Below, one piece after another: positions 24,002 to 63,720 of a stretch of 64,000 nucleotides of DNA. The notes below the pieces were generated by a model. The model did not search any database and was not told the DNA's origin. It was given only the letters and a program-made list of their open reading frames with translations. The translations under genes and the position numbers were made by a program. The stretch comes from a phage, in sequence record NC_111505.1; one strand, 5' to 3'. Every line of letters starts with the position of its first letter. Position 1 is the stretch's first letter.

Positions 24002-24018
24002 AGGGGCCAATGGCCCCT
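24002..24018 (+). promoter_or_regulatory. intergenic hairpin (AGGGGCC-AAT-GGCCCCT)
   Basis: perfect 7-bp inverted repeat right after the stop at 23997; the same stem is reused in the 29.75-kb terminator. Confidence 0.35.
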
Positions 24019-24030
24019 TCTGGAGTTTTA

Positions 24031-43370: not shown

Positions 43371-44861
43371 TTAAATAGTTTGTTGGAAAGTTATATTACT
43401 TTCATCGAGGTCAAACACCTCGGTCATGTTTGCAACAATATCGTTTGTGGTGTAAGCTTCGTCAGAGGCTCCCACAGGTTTAACTTGAATTACCAATCTG
43501 TTAAATCTGCCTATCGACACAGCAGCTGATGCAGCACCTACCAATTGGATATTGTACAACGTATCGGCGACATCCAAGCCGTTAACAACCTGCAAAAGAG
43601 CCTCTGTAATGGCATCTTTTTCGGTAGTAGAAAGAGCAGCACCTGAGTAGGTAATTATCATATCCAGGCGGTAAGTGTTTGCCTTAGAATAATAAATCCT
43701 TTCAGTCTGACCGTCTGATGTGGTAATATCGTAGAAGATATTCCCATAAGTTCTGTTTGTGCAAGCTATGGTTTGATACAGCGCCTGACAGATATCCTCT
43801 GTTGCACCACCAAACACCACCACTTGAAACTTATAAGGTGGTATACCTTTCGCATCCGTTTTATCGGTGTTGTTAGAGAACACTCTTACTTTCTCAACAC
43901 CTTTCACTTCGCTTACAGCGCTAAGGATTGCAGGGCGGGTAGCTTTAGATGTCAACTGTTTAGTGCTGGAAGCTCTTAGGCGATACTCTGAGTCCTTCTC
44001 AACATCCCTACCCTCATTGAATCTTTCTCGGTTGGTAAGCTTGATAAATCCGCTGGGAGTAGGCGACATTGTTGTTACAGTTTCTGCCTCTCTTGACAGC
44101 TCACCTGCCTCGTTAGCGATAACATCTAGGGTGATAGTTCTTTCACCTACAATCGGGGATACTCTGAAATCTACTCTGCTATTAAGCCCAACTTGATCAA
44201 GATTCGAATTGTATCCTATCCACAACGTTCCTGTCAACATATCTATCTGAATTAAATCGTCGTTCAACAGGGTTGTGTTATCTACAATAAATTGCTTAAT
44301 CTCGCCGTAAAAGCTTGGTAAATCAGAAGAGTCCAGAGACTTATCGGTTAAAACCAGACTTTTTGTTTTGATACTTCCATCTGTCTGGTTGGTAATTTGA
44401 AAGTTGTATTTACCGATTCTTAGATCTGGAGCGTTTATCCTGTGAGCAATAAGATTCCCCGCCACCTGCACGTCACTGCTAAGAACAAAGTTGCCACTAT
44501 CCAGCGTGTAGGTTTTGGAATCATAAATCATATTGTACGGCACAGTTGTGTTAATTGTCAACTGGCAAGTGCCTGATGATTTAGAACGACCTCTCCGGTA
44601 AATACCTTGCCTTCCAAGAAGTTCATCAAGGTAAATACCTTCTGCCCCATACAGCGTCTGGGATGCGTATACAGATGCTGCCATAAGAATAAGTTGATAC
44701 TCTCGCTCGTTGAAGATAGTGGTCAGCTTATCTGCAACGGAGTTACTTTGTACGTTGAAGTTTTCGCCAAAAGCACGGATCAGGCTTTGCTTAGTTTCAA
44801 CGATTAGGTCATTTAGGGTTGGTATAACGAAACCAGCCTCGGTCAATCCATACTTAGCCAC
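43371..44861 (-). CDS. putative baseplate J-family-like protein
   Basis: 496 aa; assignment by N-terminal resemblance and gene context only. Confidence 0.35.
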   Translation of the reverse strand: MAKYGLTEAGFVIPTLNDLIVETKQSLIRAFGENFNVQSNSVADKLTTIFNEREYQLILMAASVYASQTLYGAEGIYLDELLGRQGIYRRGRSKSSGTCQLTINTTVPYNMIYDSKTYTLDSGNFVLSSDVQVAGNLIAHRINAPDLRIGKYNFQITNQTDGSIKTKSLVLTDKSLDSSDLPSFYGEIKQFIVDNTTLLNDDLIQIDMLTGTLWIGYNSNLDQVGLNSRVDFRVSPIVGERTITLDVIANEAGELSREAETVTTMSPTPSGFIKLTNRERFNEGRDVEKDSEYRLRASSTKQLTSKATRPAILSAVSEVKGVEKVRVFSNNTDKTDAKGIPPYKFQVVVFGGATEDICQALYQTIACTNRTYGNIFYDITTSDGQTERIYYSKANTYRLDMIITYSGAALSTTEKDAITEALLQVVNGLDVADTLYNIQLVGAASAAVSIGRFNRLVIQVKPVGASDEAYTTNDIVANMTEVFDLDESNITFQQTI

Positions 44862-47900: not shown

Positions 47901-48806
47901 GATCTTAACCTCACCACAGACACAGTCCTCCCTCAATGTCATTGTTGCCGGACCATAGTATGCACCAACCAGCAAACCATACTTACCAGCAACATAACTA
48001 AGGTCTGCACCGCAAGCTTTCAGCATTTCTGCCATAATACTTGCTGGGGCCTCATCCATGTCAAACTCACCGTTAATGGTGTAACGTCGCTCACTGGTGC
48101 CGTCAGCGTTTTTTACCGCCTCGTCGCATATGTTGGCAGCCTCCCTGAAGGACTCCCAGTTGATGGTTTCGTCAGGACATTTAAGGTATGTTCTTAAATA
48201 GTCCAGAATCACCAAGGCAGCGTTATTGGTATACACCTCTTTACTGGTGCGAGGATCATAGCATTTTTTACCAACCTTAACGAGTGTTACGTTTGGCAAC
48301 CCAAAAGGAAACTTGTTAGGGTCAAACCTAAAGCTGACCCGTAGCCAACTGATCCCTCTGCCTATCATGTCCGGTGACCACGATGGGCAGTGTGTTCCCA
48401 TAAAAGGATCAGAGGTTTTTCTGTCGTTATGTAGCTCCCACGATACCAAATCCCCATACGAAGAAATAGGATTACCGTCGATAAGTATATCTTCTATACC
48501 TTCTAGAGGGTGATTGGCAAGAACAATGGCACAATGGAGGGTTCTGTCTCTATCCTGCTCCAAAAATGCAAGCAATCCAGATGTACGTGTCTTCCCATAT
48601 ACTACAGAACAAGGTGCAGCAGAAGATCTAAGAAGCTTTTGCCTATCTTGCTGACTTCTGTAAGATTTGTTACCCTCGAAAATCTTATCCAGAGTTCTGG
48701 TGGTAACAGTGTTCAGGCTGTCAGCCAGAGCTGCCTTGGATGCGTTCCAGTCATAGCTTGAAGATCTTGCAGAAGCAACGATGTTATCAATCATTGCAAT
48801 TGGCAT
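44967..48806 (-). CDS. central tail fibre / host specificity protein (J-like) with coiled-coil repeats and fibre tip
   Basis: 1279 aa; N-terminal 450 aa resemble the lambda J / GTA g15 tail-protein family; tandem repeats in the middle; C-terminal GxFRG repeats. Confidence 0.5.
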   Translation of the reverse strand: MPIAMIDNIVASARSSSYDWNASKAALADSLNTVTTRTLDKIFEGNKSYRSQQDRQKLLRSSAAPCSVVYGKTRTSGLLAFLEQDRDRTLHCAIVLANHPLEGIEDILIDGNPISSYGDLVSWELHNDRKTSDPFMGTHCPSWSPDMIGRGISWLRVSFRFDPNKFPFGLPNVTLVKVGKKCYDPRTSKEVYTNNAALVILDYLRTYLKCPDETINWESFREAANICDEAVKNADGTSERRYTINGEFDMDEAPASIMAEMLKACGADLSYVAGKYGLLVGAYYGPATMTLREDCVCGEVKIYPEASFDKRSNTITGRFTSPTKGYSETDFPSVFVPEWIEKDGERKIIDIDYRFVTSPYQAQRVSAIFLRRARAGRIIEVTCNMRGFKFKPGRYVTMDLPSIGIVGQEMRVLEWEFTKKGGVKVKLRQDAKEWNDATGQLPDSGDVDIPISPSGVAQPQNFRYSVLQAGEVTHGVLAWDNVGTYAQNIVQVRKNGEIVWTAQTVEQFVRVEGLTKGSYTATVVATSYKGGVSPEAYCEFNIQAPEAPVSVEVKQGYFAITLIPHSRDLASVSTQYDFWTSGMTRLPDTSDATVTSNATRMGVGSTWTSEGLQNDKVYYWYIRTTNAFGSSQFVECAARCYTSIEDLMPQIDAEFKKTETYKELMSTLDSSIEEVENRVTELNRYMDGRVDEAFQQLGDRIGAVVTETTQKFEDVNGNITALDRKLVAAQNKFTNDLNTESGRLASLIETTNKATTDLLNKKTEALDEKLVAAKGELVEQISGVESGYLAGDKTLDGKINTQRTELDASILSTNQATVDLLNRTSETLDQKISQTNATVSKNYTTLDGKITTAKTDLNTLIANTNKATTDLLNQKTSALSEQITSARGEISTNKQAIADLDGKLTSTKTALDATISDTNKATVDLINGTASAIRQELAVAKQEIIDDVGDVSELRAAVATTSKAVTDLEGKVNAQWGTKIQVDSAGNKYVAGIQLGMEGSGGQVQSYFMVSANNFAVYNPGNGTATLAFAIKNNQAFLKDAFIENGTISSAKIAQEISSNNYDGNGYHKYGWYINKNGHAQFMDVWVKGNINASSGNFTGAVNATSGTFRGDVYANNGSFRGTIDATGGTFRGRVEASVIRANQFEGAIVAHRTYGDCAPVYNSQQRVCRWRWRYVDNVQGQGKNVTFFFKLNGTRANSQLNAWIAGHQLLAGKKYGNDNDGMCAIGITGLGEQTIDIIVEIYTPWSTGNVTGITISCPTVVVSRSNSSFQGPWNESHD
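45950..46750 (-). repeat. imperfect tandem repeats encoding coiled-coil modules within the J-like gene
   Basis: four to five units of about 50 aa (TNKATTDLLNKKT, TNQATVDLLNRTS, TNKATTDLLNQKT, TNKATVDLINGTA); DNA units recur at about 160-190 nt; coordinates approximate. Confidence 0.5.
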
Positions 48807-49243
48807 TAATACCTCCAGACATCAACAACGATAGAATCTTTCATATCGAACGTAAAGATCCCTTTATCACCTTTCGCCCAAATCTGGTTGTTCCAGAACA
48901 CACCAGCGGTGAGGCCGTTCAGACCTTCGAAAATAACAATATCACCACGCTGAACCTGTTTAGGAGTATCCAGTCGAGTCAAAAAGAGATCAAAAATAGT
49001 AGGCAGGTGTGTGGTTTTGAAACGGAGCATGCACCATCTCTTGCTTTCCAACTCTGTTTTATACGTTCCTTCAAAGTTAGAAAGAAAATCTGTTCCGTAT
49101 TGGGCATCAACACATTTAGCCGCAAAAGTGCAACAATCGTGGAATCCCCATTCAAACGGGGCGGTGGCTTCTTCGTCAAATACTTTCCACAATTTTTCTT
49201 GCCAGTCTACTAAACGAGGGTGTGTGCTCATTAAACCTCCCAA
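48806..49243 (-). CDS. putative tail tip protein, possible NlpC/P60-like peptidase
   Basis: 145 aa; GFHDCCTF Cys motif; directly upstream of the J-like gene. Confidence 0.3.
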   Translation of the reverse strand: MGGLMSTHPRLVDWQEKLWKVFDEEATAPFEWGFHDCCTFAAKCVDAQYGTDFLSNFEGTYKTELESKRWCMLRFKTTHLPTIFDLFLTRLDTPKQVQRGDIVIFEGLNGLTAGVFWNNQIWAKGDKGIFTFDMKDSIVVDVWRY

Positions 49244-49797
49244 ATGATCGGGCGGCTCGCCACCTGATCCACATATTTAAAAAATCTGTCATTATCGTTT
49301 CTTGAGCTATGGCTTTCCTCTGTGTATCGGTAAGGAAAACCTCTTAACCAGCTGTTGAAGATGGAAGAGATGGATATGGACAAAGCACTATTCTCCCCTG
49401 TCTGAATAGCCATGTCTGTTATAAGGCCGTCAAACAAGCCATTAGTTGTGACAGGTAAACCATTCTCCATAGCGGTGATATATAACGTGGCACGGCAACC
49501 AGAGTACTCCGTCTTCAGCAGATCGCCAACATATTTAGGATCAAACCCGTTCAATGTTGCTACCACAGATCCGAAGTTGGTGGCATCTTTCTCAGACACA
49601 GCAGTCAATGTTGCTGATCCACCTATCCCTATAAAATGTTGCCCCTCAATCACCACAACACCAGTTCCTGAGCACACCCTGACAGTCCCTGTTGGTAGCT
49701 CTAACTTTGCAGCAATTAAGATTTCAACACCATCAAGCTCTAACTTTTCAAGAAATAAATTATCTAATGGCGCTCTTATCATCTTAGAAATCCTCAA
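49231..49797 (-). CDS. putative tail tip/hub protein
   Basis: 188 aa; context upstream of the J-like gene. Confidence 0.3.
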   Translation of the reverse strand: MRISKMIRAPLDNLFLEKLELDGVEILIAAKLELPTGTVRVCSGTGVVVIEGQHFIGIGGSATLTAVSEKDATNFGSVVATLNGFDPKYVGDLLKTEYSGCRATLYITAMENGLPVTTNGLFDGLITDMAIQTGENSALSISISSIFNSWLRGFPYRYTEESHSSRNDNDRFFKYVDQVASRPIIWEV

Positions 49798-50374
49798 AGA
49801 AGTTGATAACTATATTGTCACCTTTCTGCATAGCATCAACCTTTTGCTTAATTTTATAAAGATCCCTGATATGAAATCTACCCTTCGGAGATTGAGTTAT
49901 TATCTTCATGGTATCCCCTGCGGCAATAGGTTTCCTAAGTCTTGGGGATATGTTTATAACAGCGGCCCCAACACCATCACTTCGTACTGATGCTGTCACC
50001 ACTTTCAACTCATCATTGACAGATATTTTATCCCCAGCCCTGGCTATATCCCTGTTGGGCTCCCAACCAACCGTCTTCAAAAAATCGTCGTTACCAGTCG
50101 GTCCGAGAGCGATTGGCTCGTTGGAGGTCACTGAATGCCCATAAGCCTTGATGAGAAAAATGTTTCCATCTTTGTAAACCTGATCAACAAAACTTTTAAG
50201 CTCCAACAACTGAGATTCACTGATATTGGAAACCGTCAAAGTACCTTTCCAGTTAGGTGTGGCATAGGTTACTTTTTGCGTCTTACCTGTAAACGGGCTT
50301 TTAAATGTAACGATGTCTGCCAGTAACTCCAATCTAATATCTGGGAGGTATCTAGGCCTTTCCCATAAAAACAT
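49784..50374 (-). CDS. putative distal tail protein
   Basis: 196 aa; context only. Confidence 0.3.
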   Translation of the reverse strand: MFLWERPRYLPDIRLELLADIVTFKSPFTGKTQKVTYATPNWKGTLTVSNISESQLLELKSFVDQVYKDGNIFLIKAYGHSVTSNEPIALGPTGNDDFLKTVGWEPNRDIARAGDKISVNDELKVVTASVRSDGVGAAVINISPRLRKPIAAGDTMKIITQSPKGRFHIRDLYKIKQKVDAMQKGDNIVINFFEDF

Positions 50375-50473: not shown

Positions 50474-53400
50474 TTACTTCAGTTTCTCTTGCAACTCAGT
50501 AACAACCTCCGTCAATTTTTTAACCTGCTCCTCAAGGGCGGTTATTTTATCATCCTGTTCCCTGCAAACCTGGACAAGCAAACCTGTTACAGCTGCGTAG
50601 TCAACGTTATAGAACCTTTCCTCGGTCATCAAAGGAATGCCGTCTTGAGTAGGACCTTCTATTTCCTTCCTTTTCACGAAAGACCCTACTGCCTCTGGCA
50701 ATGCTTCCATAACCTCTTGAGCAATCACGCCTGCATAAGGCATACCATTCTCTTTCAAGGTGTAGGTATAGCCATTCATCTTCCTGATAGCTTCCAGCGC
50801 GTCAGGTATGACCTCTATATTATCCTTCAGATCCCTATCAGAACTTTGACTAACAGTGGTACATACTACCGCACCGTTGACAGCAAAATATCTTGACTTG
50901 GCCTCATCTGCCTTGGCCCCACAGTGGAATACCCAGCTGCCGGTTGTTGAGTTATCACCTATCTGAAACTCCAGCACGTTCTTCCTATCTGCGCCATTGC
51001 CCCAATAGTACAACCTGCCTGTATTAGAAGGCATGTTGGAAGTGTTGGTAACATCCGCTCCACCACCTGTGTGTATTGTAAACTCTGGTTCAAGATTGGA
51101 GCCTTGAGTTTTTAAAGTGATACCCTTACCACCTAGCTGCTGCCAATGGCCCCATGTGAAAACACCACCTATCGTTGTTCCATAACGTAGGAATTTTTCT
51201 CCAAGGTACGATATATATTCCTGTACGCAACTTTCTGGAACGTTGGCGTAGTTCCTGTATACGATAAGCGTACCTGCCTGGGAACATGGGTAGTTTCTAT
51301 CAGGTGTGGCTTGAGCATTGGCCTCCTGATGATAAAAACCCTCCCTATCTCCTTTGTAGTCGTTAAGGTCATTAGTTCCCAACCCTTGACCACGGTGCTG
51401 AATAACTTTGTTCCACGCTCTGTGGTTACCCTGCTCTATGGAACGGGTGTACAGCTGATCTAAACGACCTGCCATCTGGAAAGCATAGTTTCCAGAAAAC
51501 GCCACAGACAACCCGCCAACAACCATTGAACCTTCAGGCCCGTTGACGTTGCCAGCCAGTATTTTGGACGGATTATTATTTCCGAACTGGTTGTTCCAGT
51601 CTGCACCTGTGTGGCATACAAAACCACCAGGGGCCGAGAAAGTACCGTCTTTGTTGAAATTGTAGAATCTGTGAGCGGAACCTACAACATCACGAACAAT
51701 AACTTGACCAGCTTCTGGAGTAGACCTGAACTCTGCTTGACCTTGGAGGCCAGCACCATTACCACATTTAGAGGTAAACGTACCGTTAGTAAGATCATCT
51801 GTCCCATCTGATGCACACTGGAATCCTGCATTAGAGAATAACGCCTTTCTAGGACTGCCGTAGCACAAATAGTCAATACCGTCAGCCCATAGTTCGACTT
51901 TAGGCATGTTCATTTTGCTCATCACCGCATAGCGTTCAGCAGTGCCTATATAGTGCCACTGTGTGCCGCCGCCAGTGTAGAACCCAGAGGTACCTTTGAA
52001 GTCAACAATAGGTCTGGTGTTGGTATTGTTATCTCCAAGAACAGCCAGATTTAAATCTGCTGACTGGAGAGGTGCAACGAACTTAACACCGTCCTGATTG
52101 TTTGTTACAGAGCCGACTTGATAATCTTGCTCTCTGGTAAACACTTCGACAACATTTCTACTTGCGTATATGCTGACAGGGAAAGCACGAGCCTCCGCAT
52201 AGAAAGCAACATACTCTTGTTTACCCCTTGTTGGAGCAACCATCCCAAGAAGTGCTTTTTCATTTTGATAGAAATTCACTACCCCGTAGAAAGAGTCTCC
52301 TCTATCTGTCCAACCACCAGTCCTATAGTGGCACTGTAAGGTGGCGCAGTTCATAGGGTCACCACCGGATGACGATCTGGTGACTAGGGTAATATCAGTG
52401 CCAGTTGCTGGAGCATAGTACGGATCTGTTCTAACGATGATTGGGTAATATTTCCCATCTTCCATACCTGCAGTTCTTGGCAGTGTTAAGAAATCTTTGA
52501 CACCCGCAGCTATAGGAACTTTGAACAGATTCTGAGCATCTGCCAGGGTTGTAGCCCCAGTACCACCCGCTGCCTGAGGTAAAGGTTCCCACTTGGCCTT
52601 CCGGTTGTTATAAACACCCCATTCCAGAGTACCATTACCGGATTCATCCATACCGCCATCCCAGACGACCATCTTAGCGGCTTTCTTGGAACCCCAGAAC
52701 CCTCTTTCTGCCCCTGAACTACGAATCCATTCCCCAAGTCCCCAGTTTGTCAGCTGACCAGTGAGATCCCCGACCTGCATGTACTTAGGACAATCTAATA
52801 CACCATCTTCACGGAATCCTAAATACCGATGAGTTTCAGATCCTTTTGCGCCTTTGTGCAGGTGGACTGTTAACCAAGTCTTATTGTCGTTTCTTACCTC
52901 GGAGTAGATCCTATAACCATGCTCAAGAACACCATCAGCGTCATATTTATCTCCATGGAGAATACCTGAAGCATTTTTAACATCTCCTGAGTATTGAGCT
53001 AAGTAAAGGTGCCCGAAAGCAGGGGAGTTGTTTTTACCAAGGCCGATATGAGATCTGAAGGTGTCATCATTACGAGGTCTGACCATCGGCTGCCATGCAG
53101 TCCACTGGTTTGTGTTGGCCTGATAGGTTCTCAAATACCAAACATCCACGTTAGAGAATGGATAGTATTCCTGACGACAACCTGTACCACCGTTAGCATT
53201 GTTCTGCCAAACAATCAAGTGACCAGCACCAGAACCTGCAGGATAACCATTTGCCTCAGTTGCATTAGCAGTCATCGGCTGATAGTATATGCCGTCCTGA
53301 TTACCAGTCAAGTTATTGATATTGAAATTTGCCTCAAGGGCTGCACGTTGCTTATAGAAAGCACCGATATTGATACGGACTCCAGCGGCATCTCTGGCAC

Positions 53401-54274
53401 CTGTACCACCTTGCTCTATAGCAAGAGGTTGCCACGAGGCTGTTTGCTGGTTCCACATACCCCAACGGCCTGCTGCATCAAGCTGCAAGTACCCTGCCGT
53501 GTTTAAATCATCTCCAGCACGGATAACTGTTCTTGTTGGGTTGTTTGCCTCCAGGCGTTTAAATTCATCACGAAGTGCTATTCTTTTTGTTGTTGCTACA
53601 CCGTTGGTTACTGCAATGGTATACATGGCTCCTGAGGTAGCGCCACGGAAAATACCATCAACAGTTGTAGTATCACGACGAGATACCACACCGTTCAGAA
53701 ATTTTTCACCAGCTGCTTCAGAAGGGTAGTTAGTGGTTCTTCCCTCTTCAATAACTGCAGGGCCAACAAAGTTGACAAGGTGAATGACATCGCCTACAGT
53801 ATGCACAGTACCAAAATCTACCCGCTGTGCAAGCGCTTTAGCATCGTTGGCTGTCTGAACCGTAACATCCATTACATCCTGGACAGACTGCCCTTCAGCT
53901 GTCATGATCATAGATGCGCCAATGGTAGACTCCAGCTCCTCCCTTAAGGACGGGTCTGTATATACCATCCATGCAGCATCGGTAATCCCACCATCAGCGT
54001 ACGGTGAAGACAGTGCAGGAACAGTGTGCGGAAATTCGCCTTTCCAACGCAGGTAGAGGTCTTCCTCTTCGAAGTAGGCAAAATCCATTGGGCCGTTTAA
54101 CTTACCACCTTCCTTAAAGGAGATTACATGAGAAACAGTCCCATCCACATGGACAACATCGCCAATTTTTACACGACGGGTCAGGTCTGGTTGTTGAACA
54201 ACCAGGTAATCATCCTCTGTCACTGCGGTAGTGGCAGGAAGAGATTCAATTCTGACAACTTTAATATCAGCCAT
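50474..54274 (-). CDS. long tail fibre with C-terminal intramolecular chaperone (peptidase S74-like) domain
   Basis: 1266 aa; C-terminal SDRDLKDNIEVIPDALEAIRKMNGYTYTL... matches the endosialidase/T5 pb1-type autoproteolytic chaperone; N-terminus shares an anchor module with 56909..57577. Confidence 0.75.
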   Translation of the reverse strand: MADIKVVRIESLPATTAVTEDDYLVVQQPDLTRRVKIGDVVHVDGTVSHVISFKEGGKLNGPMDFAYFEEEDLYLRWKGEFPHTVPALSSPYADGGITDAAWMVYTDPSLREELESTIGASMIMTAEGQSVQDVMDVTVQTANDAKALAQRVDFGTVHTVGDVIHLVNFVGPAVIEEGRTTNYPSEAAGEKFLNGVVSRRDTTTVDGIFRGATSGAMYTIAVTNGVATTKRIALRDEFKRLEANNPTRTVIRAGDDLNTAGYLQLDAAGRWGMWNQQTASWQPLAIEQGGTGARDAAGVRINIGAFYKQRAALEANFNINNLTGNQDGIYYQPMTANATEANGYPAGSGAGHLIVWQNNANGGTGCRQEYYPFSNVDVWYLRTYQANTNQWTAWQPMVRPRNDDTFRSHIGLGKNNSPAFGHLYLAQYSGDVKNASGILHGDKYDADGVLEHGYRIYSEVRNDNKTWLTVHLHKGAKGSETHRYLGFREDGVLDCPKYMQVGDLTGQLTNWGLGEWIRSSGAERGFWGSKKAAKMVVWDGGMDESGNGTLEWGVYNNRKAKWEPLPQAAGGTGATTLADAQNLFKVPIAAGVKDFLTLPRTAGMEDGKYYPIIVRTDPYYAPATGTDITLVTRSSSGGDPMNCATLQCHYRTGGWTDRGDSFYGVVNFYQNEKALLGMVAPTRGKQEYVAFYAEARAFPVSIYASRNVVEVFTREQDYQVGSVTNNQDGVKFVAPLQSADLNLAVLGDNNTNTRPIVDFKGTSGFYTGGGTQWHYIGTAERYAVMSKMNMPKVELWADGIDYLCYGSPRKALFSNAGFQCASDGTDDLTNGTFTSKCGNGAGLQGQAEFRSTPEAGQVIVRDVVGSAHRFYNFNKDGTFSAPGGFVCHTGADWNNQFGNNNPSKILAGNVNGPEGSMVVGGLSVAFSGNYAFQMAGRLDQLYTRSIEQGNHRAWNKVIQHRGQGLGTNDLNDYKGDREGFYHQEANAQATPDRNYPCSQAGTLIVYRNYANVPESCVQEYISYLGEKFLRYGTTIGGVFTWGHWQQLGGKGITLKTQGSNLEPEFTIHTGGGADVTNTSNMPSNTGRLYYWGNGADRKNVLEFQIGDNSTTGSWVFHCGAKADEAKSRYFAVNGAVVCTTVSQSSDRDLKDNIEVIPDALEAIRKMNGYTYTLKENGMPYAGVIAQEVMEALPEAVGSFVKRKEIEGPTQDGIPLMTEERFYNVDYAAVTGLLVQVCREQDDKITALEEQVKKLTEVVTELQEKLK

Positions 54275-54309: not shown

Positions 54310-56907
54310 TTAAAGGTACAATCCACGGTATTGAGCATAAAGTCCCAGACCGCGAAGGATTTCGCCAGAGTGATAGCCTACCGGATCAGAAACTGCCCAG
54401 CAGCCGTTTAAAACATTATCCCCGTTAATGAAGTGGTGCTTTTGTAGTAACTTCACACAGGCTTCTACAACAATATCTATTTGAGGTATTGTCTCTGAAT
54501 ACCCGCAAAGACCTAGCCAGCAGCAACCTGCAAGCCATTCACCTACCACCCACATCCTGTCCCCTCTGTCTTGATAAGAATATCCACCAGAGGTGTTAAA
54601 GTCTGTAGGGAGATTTCCGGAATGAGATGACTGGAATCTGTTGAGGAACCATGCCCATTTCTGGCAGAACAGGAACAGTCTCTCATCAACAGGTTCTTTA
54701 TGTTTCTTAAGCTCATACAGTGTGCGGCACGCAGCAACAAAGGCTCTTGATTGGAGTTTAGAGTTATCTACCATCTCCCACCAACCAGTCAACCCCTCAT
54801 TACCCCTCTGCCATACGTAGCGGGATGCAACTGGTCCTTCTGTTCTAAATGTGTTATTATACCAAACTTGGGAGTCGTACATAAATCCAATTGTATTTGC
54901 CAATCTTTGACGATCTATGTTTTCCGCACCCATACAGTAGACTACCGGATATTGCATGCCGGGATAGGGCCAATTTGGCCTTTCCTCTAGAAGATAATTC
55001 TCCTTATCTATCACCTTTCCGGCAGGGAACACACCCGGAGTGTGTCTGTATGCGCCTTGCTTGTAGTTTCTGACATAGCAATCACCAACCTTGGCTGTTG
55101 ATTCTGTCTTGCTTGCCATCCATACACTAAACCAGATCATATAAGCATCTCTGTCTGCAACATAAAATTGCGGCAGCGTGTTGACGCAATACAGATCGAA
55201 CAAGCCATTGCCTATCTGCCTGTCGCTCAGGCTGAAATCTACAGAGGTAATTCCTTTAGGGTTAGCAAAGAAAGGTTTAATCTCATCTTCTGTGTGATGA
55301 GGTTGTGTCGGGTCTAGTTTAAAATCCCCTAGGGTAAGAGTTTCTGTTATCCATTGTCCGTTAGTGGCATATAGATCAGCATACCATAACCAACGGTCTT
55401 TGTCAAGAAATTTGACCCTTACCATCTCATCATCTGATCGATAAGTTACTGAGTTTAAAGAGATCTCTCTTCCAAAATTGAAAGTTACCTTGCCTCTTGC
55501 TATGTTGCAACGGGTGAAGTTGTCGGAGTGGTTATAAATGTCGGTATCATACTGCATACTAACACTAGCGCCACCGCTTACGACAATGTTTTCCTCTTTT
55601 GGTAAGAGATACGGGTTACCATCTTTACCAACCACCTCTACGAAATCGGTAACCTTGGCAACTGTCTCTGTTACCTCTGCCCCTCCAAAAGGGACACCTA
55701 TCCTATACTGTTTTTTGTTATTGTTGCCATCATTAAGAATGAAGTGTGGCTGGAACAGAACCCCTTCTCCTCCGAAATTCATAACAATTTCAGCATCTCT
55801 GCCTATCTTGTATGTAGTCCCTTTTTGGATTATTTCGCAAGGTTGGCGTGCGTTCATTCTAAAATTGATATACCCGTCACTGTCCCTGCTCATGACAGGA
55901 ACTGTTCCTGCAACAAGACAAGTACCATCTGTAAACGGTGCCTTAATCAACGTGGTCTTTCTAAACAGTTTGTCGTAGGCATTTATATCACTGAAATTAA
56001 GCAGCTTGTTGTAAGACTGCTTAAACGCAGTGTAATACTTTTCCTCACCTGTCAAGGTGTAGAGTTGATAACAAGCGTCACACCACATTTCTTCCCCGTC
56101 CAACTCTGGGGCTTGATTGTCTGCAACCACATTTATAGGATTTACAATTACAGGGGATCCAGCAGGTATCACCGATCCACCCTGCTCTTGTGGCAATCTC
56201 ACACAGTAGGTTACCTTGTGACTTCCTGTAACACCCTTATCTTGTAATTGGATTGTGCCGAACTCTACAGACGTATGACCACTGTCGGCTATACTACCGT
56301 TAGCCCAATAGCGGTTACCATCCCATGCTATATACCACTCAACCCACCAACTTAATCCGGATGTTGTCCAATCTGGGTTAGCATCTGTGCCACCGTAAAC
56401 ATCGGAGTCTACAGTGTTTCTTCCTAACACACCGTTATACGCTTGGAATGCCTTGTCCAGGTATTCACCCCATGTTGGAGATCCTGCTGGAATTTTTCCT
56501 CTACCATTGGTAAAAGACACCACCACATCTTTAAACCCACCGTGTGATGGAACCCCATCTGTGGATAGAGGGTAGTGGGACAATCTTTGCATTTTACTTT
56601 CTACTGCATATGCACCCAGAAGATGACTATTGTAAGCTTCCCAAGCATCTTTTGCCCTATCCAGATAGAAATCGCTTTTCGATGCCCTATATGCTTCAAT
56701 GTATCCCAGAATCAACACAGCTTGGGACTCATGCATTGCCCAATCATTATTTATCTTATTACCTGCCCACCCTGCAGCTATAAGACCATCAGGGTTTACT
56801 AGCTTATTTTGTGTAGGGGTGTTGGTAATACCTGTGTTGTTATCGAGGCACTTCCTGTGCCCCTCAATCATCTGAAATACGTTATCAATGTTGTGTTGAA
56901 TACGCAT
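54310..56907 (-). CDS. tailspike-like protein, probable enzymatic (depolymerase-type) domain, lacking its own anchor
   Basis: 865 aa, W/Y/G-rich; start overlaps the stop of the 222-aa anchor-module gene. Confidence 0.45.
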   Translation of the reverse strand: MRIQHNIDNVFQMIEGHRKCLDNNTGITNTPTQNKLVNPDGLIAAGWAGNKINNDWAMHESQAVLILGYIEAYRASKSDFYLDRAKDAWEAYNSHLLGAYAVESKMQRLSHYPLSTDGVPSHGGFKDVVVSFTNGRGKIPAGSPTWGEYLDKAFQAYNGVLGRNTVDSDVYGGTDANPDWTTSGLSWWVEWYIAWDGNRYWANGSIADSGHTSVEFGTIQLQDKGVTGSHKVTYCVRLPQEQGGSVIPAGSPVIVNPINVVADNQAPELDGEEMWCDACYQLYTLTGEEKYYTAFKQSYNKLLNFSDINAYDKLFRKTTLIKAPFTDGTCLVAGTVPVMSRDSDGYINFRMNARQPCEIIQKGTTYKIGRDAEIVMNFGGEGVLFQPHFILNDGNNNKKQYRIGVPFGGAEVTETVAKVTDFVEVVGKDGNPYLLPKEENIVVSGGASVSMQYDTDIYNHSDNFTRCNIARGKVTFNFGREISLNSVTYRSDDEMVRVKFLDKDRWLWYADLYATNGQWITETLTLGDFKLDPTQPHHTEDEIKPFFANPKGITSVDFSLSDRQIGNGLFDLYCVNTLPQFYVADRDAYMIWFSVWMASKTESTAKVGDCYVRNYKQGAYRHTPGVFPAGKVIDKENYLLEERPNWPYPGMQYPVVYCMGAENIDRQRLANTIGFMYDSQVWYNNTFRTEGPVASRYVWQRGNEGLTGWWEMVDNSKLQSRAFVAACRTLYELKKHKEPVDERLFLFCQKWAWFLNRFQSSHSGNLPTDFNTSGGYSYQDRGDRMWVVGEWLAGCCWLGLCGYSETIPQIDIVVEACVKLLQKHHFINGDNVLNGCWAVSDPVGYHSGEILRGLGLYAQYRGLYL

Positions 56908-56908
56908 C

Positions 56909-57577
56909 TTAGATAGCTCCTGCGATAATCAGTGCCCCGTACCAAGTTAGCCCGTTGTCGTAGGTTTCCAACTTGAAAATGTCTGTTGCACCAGCTGTAA
57001 ATGTTAGGATAGGATCTCTTCCGTAGGACCATTTAACATTACCAGGCCAATAGACTTTGTTGCCGCCAGAGGTCTGAGTAATGCATACGGTTATGGTTCT
57101 CGCCACCCCTTCAAGACCTTCTGTTTGATTTTCAAAAGAGATTGTGGTATTTGAAGTTAGTCGAACCTTAAAGGTATCCGCAACTTCAAGATCCATATCA
57201 AGCTGACCACCGATAGATCCGTAATCAACTATTCTGCCAGAAGAAGTTGCAGCAAGCTCACCAAAAACAGACCAGGCATTTGCAGACACACCCCCAGCAC
57301 CCTCTACAGTGGAGTCTGGGAGGATTATTTTAGGATAATCCCCGTTCCACGTGTAGTAGCGCTTAGTTTCTGGATCATAAGCAAAGTCCTTCTTGCTCTT
57401 AAGATAACCACCCTCTGTGAAATAGACTATCTTAGTAATGCTAAGATCGTTGACAACATCGTCAATCTTAGCCTTTCTTGTCCCATCAGTCTGGTTGACA
57501 ACCAAGAAGTCATCACTCAGGACTGTTTCTGCATCTTCAAGATCTGGAATTGGTATTGTAGGATAAGCTACAGCCAT
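56909..57577 (-). CDS. tail fibre/tailspike N-terminal anchor-module protein
   Basis: 222 aa; DDFLVVNQTDGTRKAKIDDVV...FTEGGYLKSKKDFAYD parallels the N-terminus of the 1266-aa fibre. Confidence 0.5.
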   Translation of the reverse strand: MAVAYPTIPIPDLEDAETVLSDDFLVVNQTDGTRKAKIDDVVNDLSITKIVYFTEGGYLKSKKDFAYDPETKRYYTWNGDYPKIILPDSTVEGAGGVSANAWSVFGELAATSSGRIVDYGSIGGQLDMDLEVADTFKVRLTSNTTISFENQTEGLEGVARTITVCITQTSGGNKVYWPGNVKWSYGRDPILTFTAGATDIFKLETYDNGLTWYGALIIAGAI

Positions 57578-57586
57578 GATTTCTCC

Positions 57587-58303
57587 TTAGTTAACATCAA
57601 TAGCACGACCAGACTGGTTGGCAATAGCCTCATCATTGGAGGTAGCAATAACACCAGAGTATTCGCGCTCATCTGGAGCAAGCGTCCAGGTATTGCGGTT
57701 AATGGTTTGTTCTGCCTCAGTCATCAGCAGATCTTTATCCTGAGTCAACAGAGAGCCTACAGGGATCGGGTTTTCCATCTCAGGACCAGCATACTGGTTC
57801 CACCATGTGGCATCTCCGGTTCTAGGCAATCTGAAGTTGATCAGATAGTACAGTTTATTAGCCCACTTAATCCAACCCTCATCATCACAAAGAGAGGTTG
57901 TCCCAGAATCAGGCTGTGGGTAGGTGAGCTGATCAAGACCTACGAAGGCCAGCCTTACAATCTCGTTCTCTTTGGTAACAACCTCAAAGAACGCTTGGTA
58001 TGTTCTCGATCTTCGATCCATGGTAGACTGGAAGTTTATGATGTTTAGCACATCCGGCTCTTGTCTTGCCACTTCCATAATCTTGTTATCAAGAACAGTC
58101 TTCATGACCTTCTTACTGAGAAAGTCCATATAAGGGAAGCCAAACAGCTCGTCAAAGTACCAGCTCCCCTTCCACGTATTAAACCTCATCCACAAGCGCT
58201 GGCGCAGACTTACCTGGTTTGAATCTATCAACTCAAGACCTTTGTCTATCGCCAAATCTCCTGTTTGTGGGTCCATCAATATATCACTATAAAGCGTAGC
58301 CAT
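57587..58303 (-). CDS. putative baseplate protein
   Basis: 238 aa; context. Confidence 0.35.
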   Translation of the reverse strand: MATLYSDILMDPQTGDLAIDKGLELIDSNQVSLRQRLWMRFNTWKGSWYFDELFGFPYMDFLSKKVMKTVLDNKIMEVARQEPDVLNIINFQSTMDRRSRTYQAFFEVVTKENEIVRLAFVGLDQLTYPQPDSGTTSLCDDEGWIKWANKLYYLINFRLPRTGDATWWNQYAGPEMENPIPVGSLLTQDKDLLMTEAEQTINRNTWTLAPDEREYSGVIATSNDEAIANQSGRAIDVN

Positions 58304-58315
58304 GAAAGCCCTCTA

Positions 58316-58993
58316 TTAGTGCGGTCCACTTGTCTCGCCATCAGGGCAAGAGTGGGTATGACCTTTATATTCTGCATAGAATGAATCCAAATCCACACCA
58401 GCAGCAGTTATAATTCTACCAGATGGGTCTATTGTGGCACCATTCATTCTGATATTTCCATCCACAGCAGCTCGCAAATTGGCAGCCCCGTTAGTGAAAG
58501 AAAACTCCCCACTGCTGTCGCACCGTAATGTCCCACCCGGTGTTTGAAGCTCAAAATCGCCAGAAGGTGTCAGTTTAAAATAAACCCTATCATTCCATAA
58601 CTCTACGTTATCAGGATCAATTTGTAAAGCGTTCGAGTCTGAATGAACAGAGGTGATTGCCCACCCTGGAAACAGGCCGTGAGTTTGTTGATCGTCGTTA
58701 TTGTTTTCATTCCTCTCTGAAAACTGCAATCCTACAACATCTCCGGCCTTAATAGGGAGTGTTAACCTTGCCTTTCCGCTGTTTGCAGACATCACCTGAA
58801 TCGGAACGTCATAGATAAGAGGGTATCTCTCCACATCTCCGTCATCAAACGTGGTTTCAGCTATTGGCTGCACGGCTGCAGAAGGTATACTGTAGTCAAC
58901 ACTGACAACTCTGGCCCTGATACTGGTGTGGTAGTCCCTCATTATTTTTTCTATAAAGGATCTTACAGCAGCATCTTTCCTATTTATTGCCAT
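58316..58993 (-). CDS. putative baseplate central spike (gpV/gp5-like)
   Basis: 225 aa; C-terminal HTHSCPDGETSGPH apex-like His motif. Confidence 0.4.
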   Translation of the reverse strand: MAINRKDAAVRSFIEKIMRDYHTSIRARVVSVDYSIPSAAVQPIAETTFDDGDVERYPLIYDVPIQVMSANSGKARLTLPIKAGDVVGLQFSERNENNNDDQQTHGLFPGWAITSVHSDSNALQIDPDNVELWNDRVYFKLTPSGDFELQTPGGTLRCDSSGEFSFTNGAANLRAAVDGNIRMNGATIDPSGRIITAAGVDLDSFYAEYKGHTHSCPDGETSGPH

Positions 58994-59997
58994 TATACCT
59001 CCTCAGTTTTGTCAACAACTCCACCTACTGTTTCCCCAAGACCAAGCTCTGTAGTGTAATCACCACCTTCTATGGTGCCCTTATGATGCACCGTGATCAC
59101 CTTATAGAAGCCTGTATATTGATTGCTTTTAAGATAAATAGTGGACTCTGGGAGGATAGCTCCGTTAAGGCATGTGGTTACAGTAAGGCCAACATCCTCT
59201 CTCGGGTTTTTCTTTTTCTTTTTAGATGTCGAACCACCTTTGGCAGCAGCTTTAGCTTTTCGTTTTTTAGCAGGTTCTGGGTTTTTAGGGGTAGGTGATC
59301 CGTGCATCCCAGACTCTGCACTTATTTCAAACACAGAGTCCTTGAACCTTTTTCCAACCTTGGTCCAATATAAAGCACCGTCCTGAACGCTGAATGTTGA
59401 GTTTGTCAGCCTTGCAAACCTGCGGAGGTTTTCTGCGGTGTTTCCGGAGAAAGCCATAGAGTATTGCAAAGTCTGGTTTCCAAAACCAACAACCCTACCT
59501 TTTGGCAAGTTCATATCCTTCAGCAGGTCATTAAGCACAGAGTTCAGAGGTGTGCCTTTCTGATAAGATCTTGTGCTCTGGCACTTAATGATGTTCTCAG
59601 TGCCATCCCCAAAGATGAACTTAGTTTTTCTGGTCGGACCTTCCCACCTGTCTTCAACAAACTCCACAGTTCCGGAGAATATCAACTGGTTCTCATTATC
59701 ATAGCCAGCTTCAAACATAACTGCAAGGGCATCAGCCTGATGCATATCCAGATAGTTAACTGTATCGTCAGACAGGTTGTAAACTGTCACATAGCCTTTG
59801 TTTGGCTCTTTGGTATTATCCTTTTGTATGTCAAACTCTATATTGGCAGCACCAGTGTCCGAGCTAATCTCATAAACTCCGGAATCACTCTCCCCTTTCT
59901 TTTCAACAGATTTTGGGATATTGGTTTTTGATTTGCCGCCATGTTCTACAGGACGACCAAATAGCAATCGCCATGTTCTACGTCTGTACTCTGCCAT
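58993..59997 (-). CDS. putative baseplate hub protein
   Basis: 334 aa; Lys-rich insert AKKRKAKAAAKGGSTSKKKKK; context. Confidence 0.35.
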   Translation of the reverse strand: MAEYRRRTWRLLFGRPVEHGGKSKTNIPKSVEKKGESDSGVYEISSDTGAANIEFDIQKDNTKEPNKGYVTVYNLSDDTVNYLDMHQADALAVMFEAGYDNENQLIFSGTVEFVEDRWEGPTRKTKFIFGDGTENIIKCQSTRSYQKGTPLNSVLNDLLKDMNLPKGRVVGFGNQTLQYSMAFSGNTAENLRRFARLTNSTFSVQDGALYWTKVGKRFKDSVFEISAESGMHGSPTPKNPEPAKKRKAKAAAKGGSTSKKKKKNPREDVGLTVTTCLNGAILPESTIYLKSNQYTGFYKVITVHHKGTIEGGDYTTELGLGETVGGVVDKTEEV

Positions 59998-60377
59998 TAT
60001 TCTAACCCTTGCTGTTCCTTGTAAAGATCAACTGGGGTACCGTATACAAGTTGCAGCTCAGATCTTGCTCCAAGGTTGTATCTTCCAACCCTTCCCCAAT
60101 ATTGATCGTCTTTAAACGACAGCACCATCAATCTACCTTTCGGTAAATCGTCTCTGTAATGCAGTCCGTCTAGAATATCTTGACAAGCTGTTACTTTTCT
60201 GGTTACTAAAGGACTGTCACCTACCGGACCAAGAGATAACCACCAGGACTCATCCCTCTCATTCCATTGCATACGCATTTCATACGTCTCATTGTCTAAA
60301 ACAACACGCATGGTTTGATCAGGAAAGCCGTCAATGTCCCACACAAAGGTGATTATGCACCAATCTTTAAGCTCCAT
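59997..60377 (-). CDS. hypothetical tail protein
   Basis: 126 aa. Confidence 0.4.
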   Translation of the reverse strand: MELKDWCIITFVWDIDGFPDQTMRVVLDNETYEMRMQWNERDESWWLSLGPVGDSPLVTRKVTACQDILDGLHYRDDLPKGRLMVLSFKDDQYWGRVGRYNLGARSELQLVYGTPVDLYKEQQGLE

Positions 60378-60389
60378 TACACGCTCCCC

Positions 60390-61301
60390 TTATTTTCCGT
60401 TAACTTTGTTGTAGTTCCCCTGCTCAGATGGGACTATGGTAGAAGGTCTTCCATATTCCTGATAATACCAATCCGCAGCAGATTGGGTAACACCGTTTTC
60501 ATCCGTCCACATCATAGATTTGTATGGCTGCCACTCTTCTGCAGCATTTGTGGATGCAGTGTCTGCAAATGCCCCTGTGTCCCTCTTGTTACCTACGTTA
60601 CTGCCATTCTTACAGTCGTTGACAGCACCTTTTTGCTGGGTCTTGCCCACTTTCTTAGGGTTGCTGTATACAGTTGCATTAACAACCTTGTTCAAGTAGA
60701 ATGTGCGGAACTCTGTAAGTTCTACATCAAACACCATCGCAGCACCTTCACCAACAGACTTGTTGGCAGAAAGGCTGGTTATGATGTAGTTCTCAAGGAG
60801 TCTCTCCTCGGTAACCAAAGAAACCAACTGGCGCTTATTAATGATCTCAGTCAAAGCCTCCAGTGCAGCGCCCGGTCGCATAGATGCTGCAGGGTTTTTA
60901 GAGTCAGTATTCCTGTCAATGTAGTTTTGCTCATAGATTATATGTGGTGATGTATTTACCCTACCAGTAAAAGAAAATACACCATCTTTAATTACAGCGT
61001 GGTCTGACAGGGTAGATTTATCTTCCACCGCAAAATCAGTCTTATCAACCGTATGTTTGAAAGAGTAGTTCTCAATCTGATCGAAGATGATGGCAAGATC
61101 GTTAGTAAAGTTTTTACCCTTCATCTCCGTATTGCGACCACCATAGTTAAGACCGCTGACAAACATAGTGTATTTTACATCGCTTTCAGTTTGCTGCTCT
61201 GCCTTTTCAGCCTTTGGAGATTTAACCTCTTGAGGCTTGTACAGGTCTTTTTCATCAACTATATTGCTTGGCATAACCTCTCCAGGACACTCCGATACCA
61301 T
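60390..61301 (-). CDS. hypothetical tail protein downstream of the tape measure gene
   Basis: 303 aa. Confidence 0.4.
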   Translation of the reverse strand: MVSECPGEVMPSNIVDEKDLYKPQEVKSPKAEKAEQQTESDVKYTMFVSGLNYGGRNTEMKGKNFTNDLAIIFDQIENYSFKHTVDKTDFAVEDKSTLSDHAVIKDGVFSFTGRVNTSPHIIYEQNYIDRNTDSKNPAASMRPGAALEALTEIINKRQLVSLVTEERLLENYIITSLSANKSVGEGAAMVFDVELTEFRTFYLNKVVNATVYSNPKKVGKTQQKGAVNDCKNGSNVGNKRDTGAFADTASTNAAEEWQPYKSMMWTDENGVTQSAADWYYQEYGRPSTIVPSEQGNYNKVNGK

Positions 61302-61340
61302 CTAAATATTGTATCATAAAATAGCCGTTTTTACAACACC

Positions 61341-61368
61341 GATAAAATAAAGGGGGCCGGAGCCCCCT
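61341..61368 (-). terminator. rho-independent terminator / attenuator
   Basis: AGGGGGC-CGGA-GCCCCCU + minus-strand UUUAUUUUAU after the tape measure gene. Confidence 0.45.
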
Positions 61369-61380
61369 GTGTGCTGTTTA

Positions 61381-63720
61381 TTACCAAAGATCTGTTGACA
61401 TAAAGTTAATATCTTTGTTATTCTCCCACTCAAGTTTTGCATCAAGTATTTTGCTAAACTCACCCTCATCTATTGAAATCGTGATTTTCCCATCGCTGAT
61501 CTCTAAAGGTAGCATTTCCATAGTTCTTAATTGAGAAGCAAAACCAGGACCACCCGGCAACGGAAGAGTTCCTCCCGGCAAGGTGTCCAAAGGATCAACA
61601 AATCCGTTACCTCCCGATATGATATCTTTGCGAATCATATCACTGATAGTATCCAGTTGCTGATTTCTCTCACTTAGCGGGTTGAAACGGTCATTAAATA
61701 ACTCCCCGGCACTTAATATTGTACCGATAATACCAAGCTTCCCAAGCAGGCCAACTCTACCACCAGGTGTCTTGAGGCCACCTCCCCCTTTTCCTGCCGC
61801 ACCACCACCAGATCCTTCTGTGGTAGCTGCACCTGCACCTGCTGCTCCAGCTGCGCCTCTTATAGAACTAAGGAATTTGAAGGTTTTTACAAGCATAGAT
61901 GCCATGACAAAACCTTTTGTCAGGGCGTTCACTACCAGCATGATGGCAGCAGCAAACCCTGCCCATTTAGCATAGCTAAAGGTGTCATTAAGCTCTTCAG
62001 AATATTCCTTCGTCTTAGCTGTTATGAATCCCCATTTAATCCCCCATTCAAGGAAAAACATGCGGATCTTGACTATGGTATTGTTTAGTTCGCCAACTAC
62101 CCAGTTGAGACCTCTCACAAAACCGCTAACAAAATCACCAGAGGCATCCCACACAAATTGCAAAGTCTCACCTGTGCGAATCAGTGTATAATAGAACTCT
62201 GTTAATTCATCAGCCCAACGGGTGAACAGCTTCTGACGAGATAGTTCGATGAAGGTTTTCAGTCTGTTTTCTGCCAGTACGTTAGACTTCTGCATTCTTT
62301 CATAACCAGCTGCAGATGCCTCGTTCATGTACTTAGCTACATACTTCATGATCTTGGCTGTCTTAACCTCACCTTTCTTCATCATGTCCATGAACTGATC
62401 CATGGATAGTTCAGAAAGACCAAAAGCCTCTTTGGTGGCTTTGATAAAAGGTTCGTATGCACCGGGCAATGCTTCAGCAAGTTGTTGCTTCAGTTCTTCG
62501 GACATTACCTGTCCTTTACCAAGCATTTGCTGGATTGCCATAATACCGCGCTGGTATTTTACCTCATCCGCACCATAAGCAGCAGCATACTGTGAGTATG
62601 CAGAGAATAGCTCATGCACTTCCTGATTTGTCATCTGGTTTTTGGCGTTTACCGCCATCTGGGCGTAACCTTGAAGACCAGATTTGAGATCAAAACCAAG
62701 ACGCATAGCCTCTTGCTGGACAAACGCAACCTCACTGTTGGCTTTGTTTGGATCTCCAGTAACAGCAGTAAGAGCAGCACTTGCCCCCTCCATCATGTGA
62801 CCAGATCTGTTCACAGCAGTAAATCCAGAGAAAGCCGTATACGCAGCTGTTGCATTAATAACAGATCTACGTAAGTCTCTCATGGCATCGCCTAGTGTAA
62901 GCGTTTGGCTGGTGGCGCTTTTAAATCCAGACTGCAGAGCTGACAGGTGGGCGTTAAAGGTTGACTTTTTCATCTCTCCGCGAGCAAACCTGGACTCTAA
63001 CTCTGAGTATCCTGGCAAGCTTCCACGGAATCCGGCTCCATACTTGGCAGAAAGTCTTATCGCAGAGTTGTAGAGGTGGGTTCTCCTTGCCTCACGATCA
63101 GACATAAGCTTATTATCCATACCAGCTTTACTGTCTCTTCTTAGCTGTCTATGATAACGATTCATAGCGGCTGTCTGAGCTTTCACAAGGTTAGGGTCGG
63201 AAGCCACACCACCCATATTAGGGTTACCTGGGATATACTTGAAAGATTTGGCATTAGCCAAAACTCTTGCCTTTGGTGCCTTATAACCGCCGTAAGACAC
63301 TGGTGTAGATTTGGCAGCCTTTTTGGCCTCTTTAGCTTGCTGCTGGTAGAACTTACGCATCCTGGCCATTTCTGGATTTTTAGCGGTAAGATTACCTACA
63401 GCCTGTTTACGTCTTGCGTTTTCCCTACGTTCTATTGCAGCCCTTACTGCAGCCTCTTTCTTGGCTTGTGCTACGCTCTCCCTGTGAAGTTTAGCATTTG
63501 CCTGAGATTGCTGTCTGGCAACCCGCTGCATTGTTTGCTGGGTTTTAACAGCCACTGCCTGCCATCTACTCATTGGGTTGGCTGAGTTAAAATCCTCGCC
63601 CAGTTTCCTGAACTCCCTCCCAATACTGCGAATTTTCTCTACAGCTTTTTTGTAGGAGGAGTTCTCTATCTCAAAGCCAATCTTGTTGACTGTTGTGGCA
63701 ACTATTTTGTTTGTAGCCAT
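61381..63720 (-). CDS. tail tape measure protein
   Basis: 779 aa, helical and K/A/Q-rich N-terminus; hydrophobic segments (WAGFAAAIMLVVNALTKGFVMASMLV); Gly-rich tract GAAGAAGAGAATTEGSGGGAAGKGGGG. Confidence 0.65.
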   Translation of the reverse strand: MATNKIVATTVNKIGFEIENSSYKKAVEKIRSIGREFRKLGEDFNSANPMSRWQAVAVKTQQTMQRVARQQSQANAKLHRESVAQAKKEAAVRAAIERRENARRKQAVGNLTAKNPEMARMRKFYQQQAKEAKKAAKSTPVSYGGYKAPKARVLANAKSFKYIPGNPNMGGVASDPNLVKAQTAAMNRYHRQLRRDSKAGMDNKLMSDREARRTHLYNSAIRLSAKYGAGFRGSLPGYSELESRFARGEMKKSTFNAHLSALQSGFKSATSQTLTLGDAMRDLRRSVINATAAYTAFSGFTAVNRSGHMMEGASAALTAVTGDPNKANSEVAFVQQEAMRLGFDLKSGLQGYAQMAVNAKNQMTNQEVHELFSAYSQYAAAYGADEVKYQRGIMAIQQMLGKGQVMSEELKQQLAEALPGAYEPFIKATKEAFGLSELSMDQFMDMMKKGEVKTAKIMKYVAKYMNEASAAGYERMQKSNVLAENRLKTFIELSRQKLFTRWADELTEFYYTLIRTGETLQFVWDASGDFVSGFVRGLNWVVGELNNTIVKIRMFFLEWGIKWGFITAKTKEYSEELNDTFSYAKWAGFAAAIMLVVNALTKGFVMASMLVKTFKFLSSIRGAAGAAGAGAATTEGSGGGAAGKGGGGLKTPGGRVGLLGKLGIIGTILSAGELFNDRFNPLSERNQQLDTISDMIRKDIISGGNGFVDPLDTLPGGTLPLPGGPGFASQLRTMEMLPLEISDGKITISIDEGEFSKILDAKLEWENNKDINFMSTDLW

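Follow-up and report, generated by a model that had tools for sequence, protein, structure and literature searches.

A phi92 gp138-family central baseplate spike and an embedded siphovirus-type tail-tip cassette in the baseplate genes of an rV5-like phage

Why would a phage tail that otherwise looks lambda-like carry a spike of the contractile-tail type? This question was raised by positions 58316-58993 of the window, by which we mean the whole stretch of 64,000 nucleotides of phage DNA analyzed here (sequence record NC_111505.1). A preliminary description had noted that the C-terminus of the protein encoded there resembles the metal-binding apex of contractile-tail spikes and that baseplate genes are nearby, yet that no sheath gene is present and that the tail tip includes a J-like protein and a lambda-type Tfa, suggesting a mosaic or unusually complex baseplate. 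Our analysis partly supported this interpretation. The spike is an ordinary, already catalogued tail-tip protein of a contractile phage tail, known before and not new, and the apparent lack of a sheath gene is an effect of the window edge.

The interval 58316-58993 is filled exactly by one open reading frame on the minus strand, a strand that the preliminary description had not given, while the plus-strand frame over the same interval contains many stops. The frame starts with ATG and encodes 225 amino acids, corresponding to gp45 of phage rV5, and we annotate it as the central baseplate spike (putative membrane-piercing protein). Its ATG shares one base with the TAA stop codon of the upstream hub gene (TAATG), and GAGGAGG, a Shine-Dalgarno sequence, is found 7 nt upstream of the ATG. 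This overlap of start and stop codons couples translation of the spike to that of the hub. The translation of the frame ends in ...YKGHTHSCPDGETSGPH, its C-terminal letters being ...FYAEYKGHTHSCPDGETSGPH, and this C-terminus (...DSFYAEYKGHTHSCPDGETSGPH) agrees with the version in the preliminary description.

Nucleotide comparisons connected the window with the relatives of rV5. Positions 56900-61400 were 97.8-98.1% identical at the DNA level to at least 113 records of rV5-like Vequintavirus phages, and positions 1-25000 were 93-97% identical to the best-matching records of this group. Based on nucleotide identity, we assign the phage to the genus Vequintavirus (rV5-like; subfamily Vequintavirinae), and the rV5-like relatives are contractile-tailed myoviruses with genomes of approximately 136-140 kb. 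The agreement was complete in the case of the spike, which is 100% identical to its orthologues in rV5, LL12, Murica, and further phages. rV5 gp45 (YP_002003547.1), which is among the virion proteins of rV5 that were detected by proteomics (PMC3606486), has the same residue at 225 of 225 positions. Our spike is thus identical to a virion protein, with no difference at the protein level, and the flanking genes on either side are arranged as in rV5; the RefSeq label of rV5 gp45 is "hypothetical protein".

The best sequence match of the spike in the PDB was the spike of phage phiTE (9cuy_Y, entries 9CUY/9MJN; 5.3e-62), followed by phi92 gp138 (21vq_t/3pqi_A; 2.4e-18, residues 8-218) and by weaker matches to the spikes of E217, Pa193, SN, Pam3, and Bas63. 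In Pfam, PF18352 was the only match (1.4e-9; 38.3 bits, with a cut-off of 26.1). It covered residues 27-95 and is a family that we take to represent the OB-fold domain at the N-terminus of the phi92 spike. The OB-fold region could be aligned with the corresponding domains of the phiTE, phi92, E217, Pa193, SN, and Pam3 spikes, and residues 122-218 aligned to the C-terminal fragment of gp138 (3pqh), as expected for a beta-helical shaft. Searches of PHROGs and NCBIfam returned no family for the spike; with respect to PHROGs, this is consistent with the proteome table of phage W70, in which the spike homologue has no PHROG (PMC11370258). On the strength of its sequence relationships, which extend over the full length, we assign the protein to the phi92 gp138/P2 gpV family, with an OB-fold at the N-terminus, a beta-helix, and an HxH motif at the C-terminal end.

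Structure prediction gave a similar picture. The AF2 model of the spike monomer, which was of moderate confidence (mean pLDDT 71; 51-66 in the last ~15 residues), consisted of an N-terminal helix, a beta domain, and short strands, followed by a helix at residues 202-211 right before the HxH motif. The region of the short strands (residues 129-188) was beta-rich, with pLDDT values of 76-96 in 10-residue blocks, exceeding 90 from residue 150. When the model was compared with the PDB using Foldseek, it matched 9cuy_Y (1.8e-20) and 3pqi (4.6e-10), and the remaining matches with E-values up to 0.001 were spikes of other myoviruses and two CPAP G-box chains. Pyocin and T6SS spikes were found at weaker E-values.

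Phage phiTE is a myovirus of the Vequintavirinae, and chain Y of 9CUY is its trimeric "puncture apparatus" below the hub (PMC11972413). This chain (also in 9MJN) is the closest solved relative of our spike, with 47% identity in the structural alignment, and the two share the N-terminal helix, the OB-fold, the beta-helix, the helix preceding the tip, and the HTH motif at the equivalent position (PMC11972413). They differ in that the phiTE spike has one more beta-helix repeat (247 versus 225 residues) and ends in HTHGG..., whereas our protein ends in HTHSCP.... The C-terminal tip of the phiTE spike could not be modelled because the cryo-EM map was too poorly resolved there (PMC11972413). phi92 gp138, an "iron-loaded spike" (3PQI, 3PQH, 21VQ), resembles our protein in its PF18352 family membership, its three-part architecture, and its aligned HxH motif, and also its gene occupies the same slot, between those of the hub gp137 and the sheath initiator gp139 (PMC13450770). 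However, gp138 is only approximately 24-27% identical to our spike, and it lacks the seven residues DSFYAEY just before the HxH motif, which lie in the segment that was folded as a short helix in the AF2 model. P2 gpV and the R2 pyocin spike likewise combine an OB-fold, a beta-helix, and an HxH iron-cage apex, and they were weak structural matches (bioRxiv 10.1101/2023.02.25.529910), but the identity in the structural alignment was 11-13% and no sequence similarity was detectable beyond the motif.

The C-terminus had been described as His-rich. Three of the six histidines of the spike are indeed located within the last 14 residues (H212, H214, and H225), but the conserved element comprises only two of them, which form the motif H212-T213-H214 of the apex (58352-58360, minus strand; codons cat acc cac). 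In an alignment of 25 homologues with identities down to 45%, H212 and H214 were invariant, whereas the terminal H225 was kept only in our protein and its two closest homologues, and the residues after the HxH motif were variable. As H212 and H214 are invariant and H225 and C216 occur only in close relatives, the conserved feature is the HxH motif and not a general richness in histidine. In the PDB sequence search, H212 and H214 aligned on the HxH motif of phi92 gp138. In phi92 gp138 and P2 gpV, one Fe ion at the tip is caged by three HxH motifs, and no sequence feature other than HxH is conserved in all spikes that bear an apex (PMC13450770; bioRxiv 10.1101/2023.02.25.529910). As the P2 apex with its histidine cage was dispensable for laboratory infection (bioRxiv 10.1101/2023.02.25.529910), the functional weight of the HxH motif is uncertain.

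A side aspect of the apex is a cysteine two residues past the HxH motif (Cys216, codon 58346-58348; HTHSCP or HTHNCP), which our protein shares only with the four nearest homologues (P0001-P0004, 65-99% identical), farther ones having GGV or HYTWTD. In a trimer, the three Cys216 residues would sit near the axis at the tip, and they may alter metal binding there.

With a probability of roughly 0.93, we consider gp45 to be a trimeric needle that is docked on the hub, has an iron tip caged by HxH motifs, and is driven through the outer membrane by sheath contraction. Judging from the homologous phi92 gp138 and phiTE puncture apparatus, this needle would be made of three spike chains. The N-terminal helix and the OB-fold domain would dock 1:1 on the trimeric hub encoded just upstream, the shaft would be a triple-stranded beta-helix, and the small C-terminal apex would be held by three HxH motifs (H212 and H214 of each chain) that cage a single iron ion. 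Upon contraction of the sheath, the tube would push the rigid tip through the outer membrane. We infer the trimeric state, the iron binding, and the piercing role of gp45 from these relatives.

HxH histidine cages are known also from phage fibres and tailspikes (bioRxiv 10.1101/2023.02.25.529910), and many fibre genes are present in the window, so that gp45 could in principle be a trimer of the fibre or tailspike kind, whose HxH motif would only set the register of the chains and would not belong to an axial piercing tip. We regard this as very unlikely, as the spikes of phiTE and phi92, to which gp45 is homologous over its full length, were solved in an axial position below the hub (PMC11972413; PMC13450770). 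The translational coupling of spike and hub genes also argues against a fibre, and Pfam revealed no receptor-binding or enzymatic domain in the spike.

The position of the spike gene, with the hub gene on one side and the sheath initiator gene on the other, is that of gp138/gpV-type spikes in baseplate operons, in agreement with a needle docked on the hub. The trimeric, gp27-like baseplate hub (rV5 gp46; 58993-59997, minus strand) matched phiTE 9cuy_X (9.2e-110), phi92 gp137 (3.3e-51), and phrog_196 (baseplate hub). The genes beyond the hub, likewise on the minus strand, encode the baseplate plug/spacer (rV5 gp47; 59997-60377), which matched the Pfam family PF22479 (Pam3_gp18 plug; 8.2e-19), the tube initiator (rV5 gp48; 60390-61301), a Dit-like tube-fold ring, and the tape measure (rV5 gp49; 61381-63720), which matched Pfam TMP_3 (4.1e-18) and is so annotated in relatives. 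The tube initiator, for which the start annotated in relatives is 27 nt further in, matched Pfam Dit_like (1.5e-22) and proteins of phiTE (4.9e-44) and phi92 (gp135; 5.4e-13). On the other side of the spike, the sheath initiator (rV5 gp44; 57587-58303, minus strand) matched phiTE 9mjn_d6 (2e-60), phi92 gp139 (1.7e-14), and the sheath initiators of Bas63 and Pam3. Two wedge genes, also on the minus strand, encode baseplate wedge 2 (rV5 gp36; 43371-44861), a Baseplate_J/T4 gp6-like protein (Pfam 4.3e-9; phiTE 1.5e-157; phi92 gp145 2.6e-55), and baseplate wedge 1 (rV5 gp35; 42673-43359; phiTE 7.8e-67; phi92 gp146 1.9e-23). The tube initiator, hub, sheath initiator, and wedges thus matched chains of the solved baseplates of phiTE (9CUY/9MJN) and phi92 (21VQ), and from these matches the neighbourhood of the spike can be described as a complete myovirus baseplate core. 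The J-like baseplate gene and the hub-like gene that had been noted nearby correspond to the wedge 2 and hub genes, and the HMM searches placed the proteins in baseplate families rather than in non-baseplate ones.

A different view, that of the preliminary description, is that a contractile-type spike is grafted on an otherwise lambda-like, non-contractile tail that has no sheath. There is indeed no sheath gene inside the 64,000-nt window, which does encode a Tfa-type chaperone together with a J-like and a Dit-fold protein. However, the gene directly after the spike codes for a sheath initiator, which would be pointless without a sheath and is therefore a sign of a contractile sheath within the window itself. 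As this protein and the wedge, hub, plug, and tube-initiator proteins match chains of myovirus baseplates, the tail is not lambda-like. In AlexBoehm, slur16, and rV5, the tape measure is followed by two small chaperone genes and then by the tube and sheath genes, which are annotated 1.0-2.8 kb past the tape measure; in genomes that are 98% identical to ours, sheath and tube thus lie just past the tape measure, that is, outside the window. Transfer of the AlexBoehm coordinates puts the tube at approximately 64.67-65.14 kb and the sheath at approximately 65.15-66.53 kb in window numbering, and we infer from this synteny that the sheath gene of the present genome lies just past the end of the window (~1 kb). 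The missing sheath is then a window-edge artefact: the gene maps past position 64000 and would not be absent from the phage, and the apparent paradox arose from the position at which the window was cut. As the rV5 tail was also seen to be contractile by EM (PMC3606486), a lambda-like tail is hardly credible in this phage.

Equally hard to credit is a spike-lysozyme fusion like T4 gp5, which is suggested by the AlexBoehm annotation "baseplate central spike and tail lysozyme" (MZ501048), as the OB-fold N-terminal domain is the only Pfam match, the helix, OB-fold, beta-helix, and apex account for all 225 residues in the gp138 alignment, and Foldseek gave no structural match to a lysozyme; a lysozyme domain was therefore rejected, with neither Pfam nor Foldseek supporting that annotation. 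With gp45 read as a hub-docked needle, many rV5-like records that read "hypothetical protein" or "baseplate assembly protein" could be relabelled "central baseplate spike, gp138 family". This is routine annotation, and little is at stake for the spike itself.

The only part of the locus that is worth a further look is a siphovirus-type tail-tip cassette (44967-50374) inside the fibre cluster, which consists of four consecutive minus-strand genes for a Dit-fold protein, a tail protein, a DUF6950 protein, and a J-like protein (rV5 gp40-gp37). The first gene (rV5 gp40; 49784-50374) encodes a distal tail protein of 196 residues with a predicted Dit fold that belongs to phrog_1302 ("distal tail protein") and is 32% identical to the product of the gene directly after the tape measure in Seuratvirus SLUR26. 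A word-indexed homologue search with this protein alone returned near-identical sequences only, and a profile including siphovirus homologues was required. As PDB sequence searches with the Dit-like protein and the 188-residue protein of the second gene returned nothing, the Dit assignment rested on structure prediction: the AF2 model, based on a 41-sequence alignment, had a pLDDT of 90, and the best Foldseek match was the Dit protein pb9 of T5/DT57C (TM 0.61-0.65; E 1e-8). The second gene (rV5 gp39; 49231-49797, 188 residues; "tail protein", phrog_2048) and the third gene (rV5 gp38; 48806-49243, 145 residues; DUF6950, Pfam 1.3e-33) encode proteins that are 40% (2e-47) and 45% (3e-47) identical, respectively, to those of the syntenic SLUR26 genes.

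The fourth gene (rV5 gp37; 44967-48806) encodes a J-like tail-tip/central-fibre protein of 1279 residues with the Pfam domains Ig_J, Ig_J_second, and Phage_Tail_Tip, and the J-like tail-tip protein of the preliminary description is hereby accounted for. It matched the NCBIfam model lambda_TipJ with 1.3e-44, which is below the cut-off of that model, and lambda J in the PDB with 1.6e-28. The identity to lambda J was 25-30% over J residues 667-990, and residues 48-758 of our protein were 54% identical to the SLUR26 host specificity protein. For rV5 gp37, a gp27/Mu gp44-like hub signal has been reported, and the protein was detected in virions (PMC3606486).

In gene sizes and gene order, the cassette agrees with the four genes located directly after the tape measure in two siphoviruses, Seuratvirus SLUR26 and Nonagvirus HdSG1, and the succession of a Dit-fold protein and a J/Tal-type protein in siphovirus gene order is that of a tail tip. 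In these Queuovirinae, however, the cassette comes directly after the tape measure gene and closes off the tail tube, whereas our cassette is separated from the tape measure by ~11 kb and is flanked by a fibre gene and by the wedge genes, and our phage has a hub and a spike of its own. Next to the tape measure, the window instead carries the myovirus genes for tube initiator, plug, hub, and spike. A local tblastn analysis detected the four cassette genes in the two siphoviruses as well as in Vequintavirus. They were absent from the tail modules of PVP-SE1 (Seunavirus) and the phi92-like PaulScherrer, although genes for the spike, hub, wedge, and sheath initiator are present in both. As the three small proteins of the cassette showed no similarity to lambda M, L, or K in BLASTP comparisons, the cassette is termed siphovirus-type because of its Queuovirinae homology and the Dit fold, and not because of direct homology to lambda. 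The GC content was 0.42-0.48 throughout 40-64 kb, with no composition anomaly over the cassette, and base composition therefore lends no support to a recent transfer.

The raw similarity of the cassette to siphovirus proteins is already on record and not a fresh discovery. The rV5 GenBank record of 2008 notes that ORFs 37-40 are similar to proteins of the siphovirus PY54, and RefSeq labels on these ORFs are "distal tail protein" and "central tail fiber J". Our literature search found no description of the cassette as a unit, or of its virion position, in rV5-like phages. We tentatively suggest, at somewhat less than even odds, that the cassette has a common origin with the one of Queuovirinae- or PY54-like siphoviruses and assembles as a peripheral baseplate "mini tail tip" that constitutes one lateral appendage; the literature and structure search yielded no report of such an assembly.

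With this Dit-to-J cassette in the fibre cluster, the idea of a mosaic or unusually complex baseplate holds for the phage as a partly mosaic one, and Vequintavirus baseplates can be viewed as a canonical myovirus core plus an imported siphovirus tip cassette. The baseplate of the Vequintavirinae is known to be elaborate, has three lateral fibre sets, and has at times been termed a "nanosized Swiss army knife" (PMC8594841; PMC13450770). The cassette thereby bears on a question of the BASEL study, namely which genes give rise to which of the three lateral fibre sets in these broad-host-range therapeutic phages.

Several further genes of the window deserve mention. The Tfa that had been considered lambda-type is a Tfa-type tail fibre assembly chaperone, which is encoded downstream of a short-tail-fibre gene (38949-39533, minus strand; Pfam Caudo_TAP, 1.5e-11). 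Chaperones of myoviruses, for example P2 G and Mu U, also belong to the Caudo_TAP family, and Tfa-type chaperones are common in myoviruses too and not lambda-specific. A protein of 690 residues (40601-42673, minus strand) contains a Pfam "non-contractile tail sheath protein" N-terminal domain, the corresponding TIM-barrel domain, and Calx-beta, and it matched Gp64 in the PDB (9lc0_M; 6e-25). It is probably the deacetylase-domain fibre protein that is common to Vequintavirus and podovirus N4 (gp65) and that has been proposed to bind the ECA/NGR glycan (PMC8594841; bioRxiv 10.64898/2026.04.02.716166). Two other minus-strand genes, 50474-54274 (1266 residues) and 56909-57577 (222 residues), encode the same N-terminal Tail_spike_N adaptor domain of the TSP1/Gp66 type, and the larger protein has a C-terminal Peptidase_S74 intramolecular chaperone domain. 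The shared adaptors suggest a branched, CBA120-like docking of fibre on fibre.

A search of the window for tRNA genes gave none. A protein of 493 residues encoded on the plus strand (24010-25491), in a divergently transcribed early/replication region, combines a DUF2201_N domain (putative metallopeptidase) with a VWA-like DUF2201 domain. Finally, approximately 16-23 unannotated "Campylobacter phage" records (GenBank MG0656xx; host Campylobacter jejuni) were 97-98% identical at the DNA level to E. coli rV5-like phages across this region, which suggests mislabelled records or co-isolated coliphages and not a true host jump.
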